Shown one piece after another: positions 935 to 29,982 of a stretch of DNA of 64,000 bases. The DNA comes from Escherichia coli (GTDB taxonomy: Bacteria > Pseudomonadota > Gammaproteobacteria > Enterobacterales > Enterobacteriaceae), in assembly GCF_009931435.1 (NCBI RefSeq), contig NZ_CP043414.1. One strand, given 5' to 3'. The number at the start of each line of letters is the position of its first letter. The stretch's first letter is position 1. A program made the translations under genes and the position numbers. The notes below the pieces were generated by a model that was given only the letters and a program-made list of their open reading frames with translations, was not told where the DNA came from and ran no database searches.

Positions 935-1053
935 GACTCTAATCCGTATTGATTTCGTTATAGAAGCCGATGATTATTTGATTGTGAGAAAAAGGACGCT
1001 TTTTATATGTGGTTAAAAGCGTCCTGCCCCATTTATGCTGATGTAAATTTAAC

Positions 1054-1353
1054 TCAGACCAGTGCTTTTAGTTCTTCCTGCATATATGTTGAAAAGTATT
1101 CAGGATTTTTAATCACAGAGCGTTCACCAGACTCCATTTTTTTTGCCCATCCAACCATTTTTTCCGTGAACCCAGGGTTCCAGCCTTCCTGGTCAGCTCG
1201 CGCCGTAATATCAGCGGCACTCGCGGGTACTCCCAGTTCTTTCAAATATTTAAAGATTCCCTTCGCCGTGCTTTCATTCATCGAACTTGGTGTTGGCGCT
1301 GATACATCCATGGCACCAATGAAATCCAGGGCTTTATCTATTACAGCAGGCAT
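1054..1353 (-). CDS. yoaC: DUF1889 family protein YoaC
   Basis: ORF 1054..1413; start set at internal Met (MPAVIDKALDF...) to give 99 aa as in K-12. Confidence 0.75.
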   Translation of the reverse strand: MPAVIDKALDFIGAMDVSAPTPSSMNESTAKGIFKYLKELGVPASAADITARADQEGWNPGFTEKMVGWAKKMESGERSVIKNPEYFSTYMQEELKALV

Positions 1354-4217: not shown

Positions 4218-4913
4218 ATGCGAATTCTGGCTATCGATACCGCGACAGAGGCCTGCTCTGTCGCCCTGTGGAACGACGGCACTGTCAACGCTCATTTTGA
4301 GCTTTGCCCTCGTGAACATACTCAACGAATCTTACCGATGGTGCAGGATATCCTGACCACCAGCGGAACTTCCCTGACGGACATAAATGCTCTGGCTTAC
4401 GGGCGCGGCCCCGGTAGCTTTACCGGCGTGCGCATTGGTATTGGCATTGCGCAAGGGCTGGCGCTTGGCGCGGAATTACCGATGATTGGCGTCTCCACGC
4501 TAATGACGATGGCGCAAGGGGCGTGGCGCAAAAACGGCGCAACCCGCGTGCTGGCAGCCATTGACGCGCGAATGGGCGAAGTTTACTGGGCCGAATATCA
4601 GCGTGATGAAAATGGTATCTGGCACGGTGAAGAAACCGAAGCCGTACTCAAACCTGAACTCGTTCATGAACGGATGCAACAGCTTTCCGGCGAATGGGTG
4701 ACGGTAGGGACGGGCTGGCAAGCCTGGCCGGATCTCGGTAAAGAGAGCGGTTTGGCCCTGCGCGATGGCGAAGTGTTACTGCCCGCTGCAGAAGATATGC
4801 TGCCGATTGCTTGTCAGATGTTTGCCGAGGGTAAAACGGTGGCGGTGGAACATGCCGAACCGGTTTATTTACGTAACAACGTCGCATGGAAGAAACTTCC
4901 GGGCAAAGAATGA
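4218..4913 (+). CDS. tsaB: tRNA t6A37 threonylcarbamoyladenosine biosynthesis protein TsaB (YeaZ)
   Basis: 231-aa [21 protein letters not shown]... Confidence 0.9.
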
Positions 4914-4952
4914 ATCTTAAGAGTATGCCCTGAGAAAAAAAGGAGTCGCATC

Positions 4953-5534
4953 ATGGCGGTTCAAAAGAATGTTATCAAAGGCATACTGGCAGGTACGTTT
5001 GCGCTAATGCTCAGCGGTTGTGTCACTGTGCCGGACGCCATTAAAGGCAACAGTCCCACGCCGCAACAAGATTTAGTTCGGGTAATGAGTGCGCCGCAGC
5101 TGTACGTTGGTCAGGAGGCACGCTTTGGCGGCAAAGTGGTTGCGGTACAAAACCAGCAAGGGAAAACCCGCCTGGAAATTGCCACCGTACCGCTGGACAG
5201 TGGAGCCAGACCGACGCTGGGAGAACCTTCTCGCGGTCGCATTTATGCCGATGTGAACGGTTTTCTGGATCCGCTAGATTTTCGTGGACAATTGGTCACG
5301 GTAGTTGGACCAATCACCGGTGCGGTTGACGGCAAAATCGGCAACACGCCCTATAAATTTATGGTGATGCAGGTAACGGGTTACAAACGTTGGCATTTAA
5401 CCCAGCAGGTGATTATGCCGCCTCAGCCGATTGATCCATGGTTTTATGGCGGTCGTGGCTGGCCCTATGGCTACGGTGGATGGGGCTGGTATAATCCCGG
5501 CCCCGCGAGAGTACAAACTGTTGTAACTGAATAA
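4953..5534 (+). CDS. yeaY: Slp-family outer-membrane lipoprotein YeaY
   Basis: 193-aa ORF with lipobox LSGC signal peptide. Confidence 0.85.
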
Positions 5535-5555
5535 TTGCTTGTTTTTAAAGAAAAA

Positions 5556-5590
5556 GAAACAGCGGCTGGTCCGCTGTTTCTGCATTCTTA
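5556..5590 (+). terminator. Rho-independent terminator downstream of yeaY
   Basis: Hairpin gaaacagcgg-ctggt-ccgctgtttc followed by a T-rich tract; overlaps a FadR-like motif. Confidence 0.5.
5563..5579 (+). promoter_or_regulatory. Putative distal FadR operator of fadD
   Basis: GGCTGGTCCGCTGTTTC resembles FadR consensus (CTGGTC-GA-TGTT); about 87 bp upstream of the second site, matching the two-operator architecture known for fadD. Confidence 0.4.
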
Positions 5591-5649
5591 CGGTAAAGAT
5601 AAAAATAAATAGTGACGCGCTTCGCAACCTTTTCGTTGGGTAATTATCA

Positions 5650-5666
5650 AGCTGGTATGATGAGTT
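5650..5666 (+). promoter_or_regulatory. Putative proximal FadR operator of fadD
   Basis: AGCTGGTATGATGAGTT, FadR-like half-sites, 73 bp upstream of the fadD TTG start. Confidence 0.45.
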
Positions 5667-5738
5667 AATATTATGTTAACAGCATGTATATCATTTGGGG
5701 TTGCGATGACGACGAACACGCATTTTAGAGGTGAAGAA

Positions 5739-7424
5739 TTGAAGAAGGTTTGGCTTAACCGTTATCCCGCGGACGTTCCGACGGAGATCAACCCTGACCG
5801 TTATCAATCTCTGGTAGATATGTTTGAGCAGTCGGTCGCGCGCTACGCCGATCAACCCGCGTTTGTGAATATGGGGGAGGTGATGACCTTCCGCAAACTG
5901 GAAGAACGCAGTCGCGCGTTTGCCGCTTATTTGCAACAAGGGTTGGGACTGAAGAAAGGCGATCGCGTTGCGTTGATGATGCCTAATTTATTGCAATATC
6001 CGGTGGCGCTGTTTGGCATTTTGCGTGCCGGGATGATCGTTGTAAACGTTAACCCGTTGTATACCCCGCGTGAGCTGGAGCATCAGCTTAACGATAGCGG
6101 CGCATCAGCGATTGTTATCGTGTCTAATTTTGCCCACACTCTGGAAAAAGTGGTTGATAAAACCGCCGTTCAGCACGTTATTCTGACCCGTATGGGCGAT
6201 CAGCTATCCACGGCAAAAGGCACGGTAGTCAACTTCGTTGTTAAATACATCAAGCGTCTGGTGCCGAAATACCATCTGCCAGATGCCATCTCATTTCGCA
6301 GCGCACTGCATAACGGCTACCGGATGCAGTACGTCAAACCCGAACTGGTGCCAGAAGATTTAGCTTTCCTGCAATATACCGGCGGTACCACTGGTGTGGC
6401 GAAGGGCGCGATGCTGACTCACCGCAATATGCTGGCGAATCTGGAACAAGTTAACGCGACTTATGGGCCGCTGTTGCATCCGGGCAAAGAGCTGGTGGTG
6501 ACGGCACTGCCGCTGTATCACATTTTTGCTCTGACCATTAACTGCCTGCTGTTTATTGAACTGGGTGGGCAGAACCTGCTTATCACTAACCCGCGCGATA
6601 TTCCGGGGTTGGTAAAAGAGTTAGCGAAATATCCGTTTACCGCGATAACCGGCGTTAACACCTTGTTCAATGCGTTGCTGAACAATAAAGAGTTCCAGCA
6701 GCTGGATTTCTCCAGTCTGCATCTTTCTGCAGGCGGTGGTATGCCTGTTCAACAAGTGGTGGCTGAACGTTGGGTGAAACTGACCGGACAGTATCTGCTG
6801 GAAGGTTATGGCCTGACCGAGTGTGCGCCGCTGGTCAGCGTTAACCCGTATGATATTGATTATCATAGTGGTAGCATCGGTTTGCCGGTGCCGTCGACGG
6901 AAGCCAAACTGGTGGATGATGATGATAATGAAGTACCACCGGGTCAACCGGGTGAGCTTTGTGTCAAAGGACCGCAGGTGATGCTGGGTTACTGGCAGCG
7001 TCCGGATGCTACCGATGAAATCATCAAAAATGGCTGGTTACACACCGGCGATATCGCGGTGATGGATGAAGAAGGATTCCTGCGCATTGTCGATCGTAAA
7101 AAAGACATGATTCTGGTTTCCGGTTTTAATGTCTATCCCAACGAAATTGAAGATGTCGTCATGCAGCATCCTGGCGTACAGGAAGTCGCAGCTGTTGGCG
7201 TACCTTCCGGCTCCAGTGGTGAAGCGGTGAAAATCTTCGTAGTGAAAAAAGATCCATCGCTTACCGAAGAGTCACTGGTGACCTTTTGCCGCCGTCAGCT
7301 CACGGGCTACAAAGTACCGAAGCTGGTGGAGTTTCGTGATGAGTTACCGAAATCTAACGTCGGAAAAATTTTGCGACGAGAATTACGTGACGAAGCGCGC
7401 GGCAAAGTGGACAATAAAGCCTGA
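5739..7424 (+). CDS. fadD: Long-chain fatty acid--CoA ligase
   Basis: ORF 5673..7424; start set at in-frame TTG ([13 protein letters not shown]...) for 561 aa; AMP-binding motif [12 protein letters not shown]. Confidence 0.85.
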
Positions 7425-7443
7425 GCGTTAAGTCAGTCGTCAG

Positions 7444-7469
7444 ACGCCGGTTAATCCGGCGTTTTTTTT
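7444..7469 (+). terminator. Rho-independent terminator of fadD
   Basis: acgccgg-ttaat-ccggcgt stem followed by T8. Confidence 0.6.
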
Positions 7470-29235: not shown

Positions 29236-29982
29236 GTGACCAAACTCAAACTTCTGGCACTTGGAGTGCTTATCGCAACGTCTGCAGGCGTAGCGCACGC
29301 TGAAGGTAAATTTTCCCTGGGCGCAGGCGTAGGTGTCGTTGAACACCCATATAAAGATTACGATACCGATGTTTACCCAGTACCGGTAATCAACTATGAA
29401 GGCGATAACTTCTGGTTCCGTGGCTTAGGTGGTGGTTACTACCTGTGGAATGACGCAACGGATAAACTTTCAATTACCGCTTACTGGTCGCCGCTTTACT
29501 TCAAAGCTAAAGACAGTGGCGATCACCAAATGCGTCACCTGGATGACCGTAAGAGCACCATGATGGCTGGTCTGTCTTATGCTCACTTTACCCAGTACGG
29601 TTACCTGCGTACCACCCTGGCTGGCGATACCCTGGATAACAGCAACGGCATCGTCTGGGATATGGCCTGGTTGTATCGTTACACCAACGGTGGCCTGACC
29701 GTGACTCCGGGTATTGGTGTGCAGTGGAACAGCGAAAACCAGAACGAATACTATTATGGCGTATCGCGCAAAGAGTCTGCGCGCAGCGGTCTGCGTGGCT
29801 ATAACCCGAATGACAGCTGGAACCCTTACCTGGAGCTAAGTGCCAGCTACAACTTCCTCGGCGACTGGAGTGTTTACGGCACCGCACGCTACACTCGTCT
29901 GTCTGATGAAGTTACTGACAGCCCGATGGTAGATAAATCCTGGACTGGCCTGATTTCTACCGGGATCACCTACAAATTCTGA
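29236..29982 (+). CDS. mipA: MltA-interacting outer-membrane protein MipA
   Basis: 248-aa ORF, GTG start, signal peptide, ends in aromatic (F) typical of beta-barrel OMPs. Confidence 0.85.
   Translation: MTKLKLLALGVLIATSAGVAHAEGKFSLGAGVGVVEHPYKDYDTDVYPVPVINYEGDNFWFRGLGGGYYLWNDATDKLSITAYWSPLYFKAKDSGDHQMRHLDDRKSTMMAGLSYAHFTQYGYLRTTLAGDTLDNSNGIVWDMAWLYRYTNGGLTVTPGIGVQWNSENQNEYYYGVSRKESARSGLRGYNPNDSWNPYLELSASYNFLGDWSVYGTARYTRLSDEVTDSPMVDKSWTGLISTGITYKF

Follow-up and report, generated by a model that had tools for sequence, protein, structure and literature searches.

The distal FadR site of Escherichia coli fadD lies within the stem-loop that follows yeaY

Two FadR sites precede fadD in E. coli, one of them near −100 as counted from the transcription start. 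Why a FadR site should be found at that position, and whether it is relevant, is a small puzzle raised by a 2022 review (PMC9329746), in which it is remarked that a site at −100 'is surprising if it is to act as a repressor' and that there has been no in vivo test of it. This question was addressed here with a stretch of 64,000 nucleotides from the E. coli chromosome (the window), for which an original prediction, made from the sequence alone, had placed the distal site in a terminator hairpin of yeaY.

In the window, yoaA, tsaB, yeaY, fadD and rnd are all situated on the + strand, as judged from open reading frames and the RefSeq annotation. yeaY, which encodes a Slp-family lipoprotein, occupies 4953..5534 (+), with its TAA stop codon at 5532..5534, and fadD (561 aa) occupies 5739..7424 (+) in the RefSeq annotation, the frame of which was checked. 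The 204-bp spacer between them was found in 5,425 of 5,426 complete E. coli genomes. It differs from that of K-12 MG1655 by a single base, at 5681, outside both FadR sites, and the K-12 literature is therefore directly applicable to the window (the K-12 coordinate is 1895485 minus the window coordinate).

The two FadR sites and the fadD promoter

The proximal operator (OD1, or 'site 1'), AGCTGGTATGATGAGTT, was found as an exact match at 5650..5666 (+), where it had been predicted. The distal one (OD2, or 'site 2'), GGCTGGTCCGCTGTTTC, is also an exact match, at 5564..5580 (+), and not at 5563..5579, a shift of one base. The start-to-start distance is accordingly 86 bp, with a gap of 69 bp, where about 87 bp had been proposed; this agrees with the reported two-operator arrangement. 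The assignment of site 2 as distal and site 1 as proximal follows the gel-shift probe table of PMC3460868 (probe fadD-FadR-site2). Both exact 17-mers are contained in the gel-shift probes of PMC3460868 and PMC4259882, and in sequence and position they are identical to OD1 and OD2 of fadD in E. coli (Black et al. 1992; PMC3460868).

The transcription start of fadD (an A) was placed at 5679 (+), 60 bp upstream of the TTG, by locating the published distance (PMC3460868) on the sequence. The proximal site overlaps the −35/−10 region relative to this start, a position that fits repression. The distal site does not overlap the −35, −10 or +1 elements, and the spans of the two sites, −29..−13 and approximately −115..−99, agree with the OD1 and OD2 coordinates that Black 1992 is reported to give. 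A CRP site with the core AGTGA-N6-TCGCA is found at 5611..5626 (+), centred near −60.5 and inside the CRP gel-shift probe of PMC3460868 (window 5593..5640), where it is described as class I. Feng & Cronan (2012, PMC3460868) reported that fadD has, besides its two FadR sites, a CRP site of class I and a site for ArcA, the latter sharing 1 bp with 'site 2'. Since these sites had already been mapped experimentally, their detection here re-identifies known elements; the FadR operators and the CRP site are textbook knowledge, and the same is true of the fadD transcription start and of its TTG start codon. An alternative promoter, TTAATA-18-TATCAT at 5665..5694, which is also a genomic SELEX prediction, disagrees with the mapped start at 5679 and was set aside.

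The predicted TTG start of fadD was borne out at 5739, and among 81 sequences there were 76 TTG, 5 GTG and no ATG starts. N-terminal sequencing of FadD in Black 1992 is said to support the TTG start as well. A Shine-Dalgarno sequence, AGAGGTGA, lies at 5727..5734 (+), 4 nt before the TTG, and AGAGGTG or CAGGAGT is present in all loci. An in-frame ATG at 5706..5708, inside the 60-nt 5′ UTR of fadD, is situated exactly 11 codons upstream of the TTG or GTG, with no intervening stop codon, in 71 of the 81 sequences; it may serve as another start codon, or represent a conserved feature of the RNA or leader.

The two sites were compared using a FadR matrix built from five non-fadD operators only (fadL sites 1 and 2, fadBA, fabA and fabB, taken from published probe tables). 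The prediction had held that both resemble the FadR consensus, and the matrix scan upheld this for the proximal site alone. That site scored 13.7 bits, the best of the approximately 128,000 positions in the 64-kb window, where about 0.9 such matches would be expected per random 64 kb. It agrees with the consensus, aaCTGGTCnGACC(T/A)Gtt (PMC9329746), at 12 of the 16 specified positions, with a perfect left half, CTGGT, and is like the canonical operators of fadBA, fadL, fadE and fadIJ in overlapping the −35/−10 region. The distal site is unlike them: its distance from the transcription start is about 100 bp, on the upstream side, it matches the consensus at 9 of 16 positions, and its right half, CTGT, agrees with ACCA at none of four. 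With the same five-site matrix it scored 5.0 bits, rank 110 in the window, where about 113 equal or better matches are expected per 64 kb. From its sequence alone, it thus resembles a FadR operator no more than chance would produce, and its standing as one depends on the published binding data.

Those data (PMC3460868) show high affinity of FadR for site 1 in gel shifts and binding in vitro at site 2 that is more than 10-fold weaker than at the other sites; oleoyl-CoA releases FadR from both fadD sites, and the gel shifts are said to agree with the DNase I footprints of Black et al. 1992, J Biol Chem 267:25513. Deletion of fadR derepresses fadD by 2–3-fold only (Feng & Cronan). A literature search for FadR occupancy by ChIP-exo or ChIP-seq gave no usable data.

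Two further sequences in the window exceeded 13 bits, which indicates that even high matrix scores need context. They are CACTGGTCTGAGTTAAA (13.7 bits; 1048..1064, − strand), at the 3′ end of yoaC in the convergent yoaC–yoaH spacer, and GACTGGCCTGATTTCTA (13.4 bits; 29943..29959, + strand), inside yeaE. Both were treated as probable chance matches.

The stem-loop after yeaY and its evolution

A stem-loop, AGAAACAGCGG-CTGGT-CCGCTGTTTCT, is predicted by folding at 5555..5581 (+). Its core stem of 11 bp, with 6 GC pairs, begins 20 nt past the yeaY stop codon, and its loop, CTGGT, is at 5566..5570 (+). In a 66-nt context the energy is −21.6 kcal/mol (z −3.4); for the stem-loop itself the values are −16 to −20 kcal/mol, with z from −3.4 to −5.4. 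The minimum free energy structure is an extended, imperfect hairpin at 5548..5589 (+; −20.2 kcal/mol, z −5.4), in which AAGAA and TTCTT flank an internal loop (AA versus GCA) and the 11-bp core. It is apparent that the distal site does coincide with the hairpin after yeaY, as had been predicted, given that 5564..5580 overlaps 5555..5581. Only the left FadR half-site of the distal operator is a good one, and it is identical with the loop CTGGT; the remainder of the 17-mer corresponds to the stem's 3′ arm. The overlap is real, and it does not appear to be discussed in the fadD FadR literature examined; neither 'terminator' nor 'yeaY' occurs in the text of PMC3460868.

The fadD loci of 80 species of Enterobacterales, a sample to which Salmonella, Shigella and Klebsiella proper do not belong, were then compared. 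yeaY is upstream of fadD in 79 of the 80, and the remaining locus ends at a contig end. The proximal operator is present in 77 loci, 85–96 nt before the start codon, as a sequence of the type AACTGGTA[C/A]GCTGAGTT (typically AACTGGTACGCTGAGTT), and the CRP site is conserved in 78. A further FadR-like site scoring 6.5 bits or more is present in hardly any of the 80 loci, from which it follows that the two-operator arrangement is not conserved at this promoter. Some loci merit separate mention. In Enterobacter sp. 10-1 (L013), another FadR-like sequence, TTCTGGTCTGATAAGAA (8.7 bits), is situated just downstream of the hairpin, approximately 154 nt upstream of fadD. It was seen only in that species, its close relatives L014 and L015 being without it, and may have arisen independently in this lineage as a weak site, or may match by chance. 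Two Edwardsiella loci (L075 and L080) have neither a proximal FadR operator nor a CRP site at fadD, although yeaY is still upstream; from sequence, the regulation of fadD appears to have been rewired in this genus.

A hairpin follows yeaY essentially everywhere in the 80 loci. In Serratia, Pantoea, Erwinia and Yersinia it consists of an unrelated GC-rich stem and then a T-run, a replacement that is typical of terminator turnover. A stem homologous to that of E. coli (…ACAGCGG/CCGCTGT…) was found in 53 Enterobacteriaceae loci, and here the base pairing has been maintained: in 49 distinct sequences 93.2 % of the stem cells pair, as against 42–70 % in slid controls, both-side (compensatory) changes occur in 5 of the 12 stem pairs, and the observed covariation score was reached by none of 500 shuffles.

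The loop is a different matter. Its columns contain 0.06–0.97 bits, compared with 1.7–2.0 bits for the stem core, and within TGGT the T carries 0.60 bits and the first G 0.06 bits (loop positions 2–3). The variants include CTCGT, CTTGT, CTAGT, CCGGT, CAGGT, CATGT, CGTGT, CCAGT and C-TCA-G, among others. CTGGT itself was found in only 8 of the 80 species (E. coli, two C. amalonaticus, Pluralibacter, Phytobacter, one Kosakonia, Entomohabitans and one Buttiauxella). It is nevertheless the commonest single loop, occurs in at least six genera and is one substitution away from most of the others, and for these reasons it may be ancestral and weakly retained. Feng & Cronan described the sites and their spacing as 'largely conserved' in Citrobacter, Klebsiella and Enterobacter; for site 2, the conservation that they noted arises because the stem, and not the FadR half-site, has been kept.

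The loop is also polymorphic within E. coli. The spacer allele of K-12 and the window accounts for approximately 74 % of the 5,426 complete genomes, and TGGT is kept in 81 %. A CCGGT loop is present in 1,024 genomes (19 %); in this allele the T of TGGT is lost (T>C at window 5567), and the matrix score falls from 5.0 to 0.6 bits (scored on L035). That a key contact base is so commonly polymorphic speaks against strong selection for distal FadR binding. E. coli E302 (L083) carries CCGGT. The same genome, like L002, has a T>A change at the centre of the proximal operator (AGCTGGTAAGATGAGTT).

A third allele, in 360 of the 5,426 genomes (6.6 %; e.g. AR_0162, L084), has AAGAATGCAG… in place of AAGAAAAAG… on the 5′ side of the hairpin. 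This AA to TGC change in the 5′ flank gives the extended hairpin a perfect stem of 19 bp in place of the imperfect one (−31.8 versus −20.2 kcal/mol), and in thus restoring symmetry it looks like a quasipalindrome template-switch mutation. In E. coli PEC301 (H35, NZ_CM168013.1) the match to the spacer is split in two places near window 5604, which points to an insertion that separates the hairpin from the CRP site.

The terminator question and read-through from yeaY

The prediction had called the hairpin the yeaY terminator. This label is supported by the stable GC-rich stem-loop, the compensatory changes and the U-tract that is present in most related genera, but in E. coli the + strand offers no free U-tract, no 3′ end at this position is given in one Term-seq study, and fadD rises together with yeaY on sigma-E induction. 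The + strand tail, UGCAUUCUU, pairs with the upstream AAGAA and so extends the hairpin, leaving no free U-run. Scored as a U-tract, the tail GCAUUCUUA has a T-score of 0.56 and falls short of five T in eight, and the terminator scan called the hairpin on the minus strand only, with the tail UUUUUCUUUAA. In Citrobacter the T-tract score is likewise low (0.4–0.7), compared with 1.1–3.5 in nearly all other genera. The tail in E. coli and Citrobacter is GCAUUC…, while most related genera have 5–7 U after the stem. The A-rich 5′ flank of the hairpin (alignment columns 8–12) is conserved across genera.

A check for a yeaY 3′ end in Term-seq data had been proposed, and none was found at the site in the Adams 2021 tables, which hold nothing on either strand between K-12 1888017 and 1893787 beyond the fadD/sroD end at 1888017/1888020; low expression of yeaY could account for the lack of a peak. 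The TERMITe supplements gave no relevant match for a yeaY 3′ end. An Rfam search of the spacer yielded no family, the sole match being that of the sRNA sroD (RF00370, 115 bits), which overlaps the 3′ end of fadD at window 7383..7468. The Term-seq ends at K-12 1888017/1888020 correspond to the sroD terminator.

A motif inside the 3′ end of tsaB, GAAACTT-N16-TCTTA at 4891..4918 (+), is taken here, by its agreement with the sigma-E consensus, to be a sigma-E-like promoter for yeaY. The listing of yeaY as a member of the sigma-E regulon (PMC2731931) is consistent with this motif. Upon sigma-E induction, yeaY increased 2.8-fold, fadD 2.2-fold and rnd 1.5-fold, and yeaZ-yeaY-fadD-rnd is listed as one unit (Bury-Moné 2009, PMC2731931). 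yeaY is absent from the text of the Rhodius 2006 sigma-E paper, so the sigma-E evidence comes from Bury-Moné 2009 only.

With intrinsic terminators, among them the bidirectional type that has A- and U-tracts on its flanks, the E. coli hairpin shares the GC-rich stem-loop, the A-rich 5′ flank and compensatory evolution. It differs from them in that GCAUUCUU, pairing upstream, occupies the place on the + strand where a U-tract is expected, and in that the downstream gene is co-induced. The E. coli hairpin is best described as an ancestral intrinsic terminator that has become degenerate and leaky.

Origin and role of the distal site

Taken together, these data lead us to favour, with somewhat better than even confidence, the reading that the proximal site is the functional operator and the distal site a weak by-product of a selected yeaY hairpin. 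On this reading, FadR bound over the −35/−10 spacer of the CRP-dependent fadD promoter would block RNA polymerase, long-chain acyl-CoA would free the proximal operator of FadR and relieve the occlusion, and control of fadD would consist of this occlusion together with class I activation by CRP and repression by ArcA. The sequence of the weak distal 'operator' would be that of the CTGGT loop followed by the stem-loop's 3′ arm, and selection there would act on the hairpin, as an ancestral intrinsic terminator of yeaY or as a 3′-end structure. In the Escherichia/Citrobacter lineage, the U-tract would have been lost and the hairpin would leak, such that yeaY transcription could run into fadD. We infer that the hairpin acts on the RNA of yeaY and that fadD does not need the distal site; most likely, FadR binding there has low affinity and is evolutionarily labile, a by-product for which the repression of fadD has little or no need. 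The proposal that one sequence does two jobs holds to the extent that FadR binds the distal site in vitro and that this site overlaps the hairpin, but the FadR job is weak in vitro (binding more than 10-fold weaker), other genera have not kept it and E. coli itself is polymorphic for it. Several points count against the favoured reading. FadR does bind the distal site in vitro, with release by acyl-CoA; Feng & Cronan's statement of conservation covers Citrobacter, Klebsiella and Enterobacter, and Salmonella and Klebsiella proper lie outside the 80-locus sample; CTGGT is the modal loop, in at least six genera, and is perhaps ancestral; the matrix derives from only five sites; and low yeaY expression may explain the lack of a Term-seq peak.

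Some of the same observations would be expected if the distal site were a genuine auxiliary operator, at which FadR, at −107, cooperates with proximal FadR through local concentration, looping or interference with CRP/alpha-CTD at −60.5, the same DNA also encoding the hairpin. The footprint and the gel shift with acyl-CoA release point in this direction, as do a centre-to-centre distance of 86 bp, or about 8.2 helical turns, the frequency of CTGGT and its scatter over at least six genera, and the retention of TGGT by 81 % of E. coli genomes. This reading is nevertheless considered unlikely. The matrix score of the distal site is at chance level, 72 of the 80 species are without TGGT although the proximal site is nearly invariant, and the CCGGT allele has reached 19 % in E. 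coli. To our knowledge, neither tetramerisation of FadR nor looping by it has been described. The binding is more than 10-fold weaker, FadR represses fadD by 2–3-fold in total, and the 2022 review (PMC9329746) knows of no in vivo test. A role of the hairpin other than termination of yeaY transcription, namely as a 3′-end stabiliser, an RNase processing site or a minus-strand (antisense) terminator, would make the FadR overlap irrelevant. It would fit the scan result on the minus strand only, the conserved A-rich 5′ flank, the absence of a + strand 3′ end from the Term-seq tables and the perfect 19-bp stem allele, which is more like a double-stranded RNA element than a terminator. We regard it as improbable, given that there is no promoter-like site for the minus strand downstream and no minus-strand 3′ end in the Adams 2021 tables, and that the same hairpin after yeaY bears a canonical + strand U-tract in most related genera.

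Slightly less probable still is that distal FadR serves as a roadblock or insulator on the DNA of the decayed terminator, limiting sigma-E-driven read-through from yeaY into fadD and so keeping fadD under fatty-acid control. The degenerate U-tract of E. coli, the co-induction of yeaY and fadD by sigma-E, a site position that promoter repression does not explain, and the combination of a weak tail with CTGGT at both C. amalonaticus loci are in its favour. If it were true, an RNA hairpin and a DNA-bound repressor would form two layers of insulation between yeaY and fadD, and the CTGGT and CCGGT alleles of E. coli would be a natural polymorphism in insulation. The Citrobacter freundii complex, however, has equally weak tails but the loops CTCGT or CGTGT, CTGGT persists in several genera whose U-tracts are good, and the mean T-score is 1.95 for TGGT loops versus 2.24 for the others, which is no association; a link between U-tract decay and retention of TGGT was rejected on these grounds. 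The low affinity of the site and the 2.2-fold rise of fadD on sigma-E induction also speak against a roadblock.

The interpretation of the distal site as a by-product of the yeaY hairpin is a modest new angle on a known promoter, and it is probably the explanation of the puzzling FadR site at −100. The CCGGT allele, carried by 19 % of complete E. coli genomes, is a ready natural allele with which the function of the distal site can be compared. More generally, when palindromic terminator DNA is footprinted in vitro, the result can be a regulon entry that has no support from selection.
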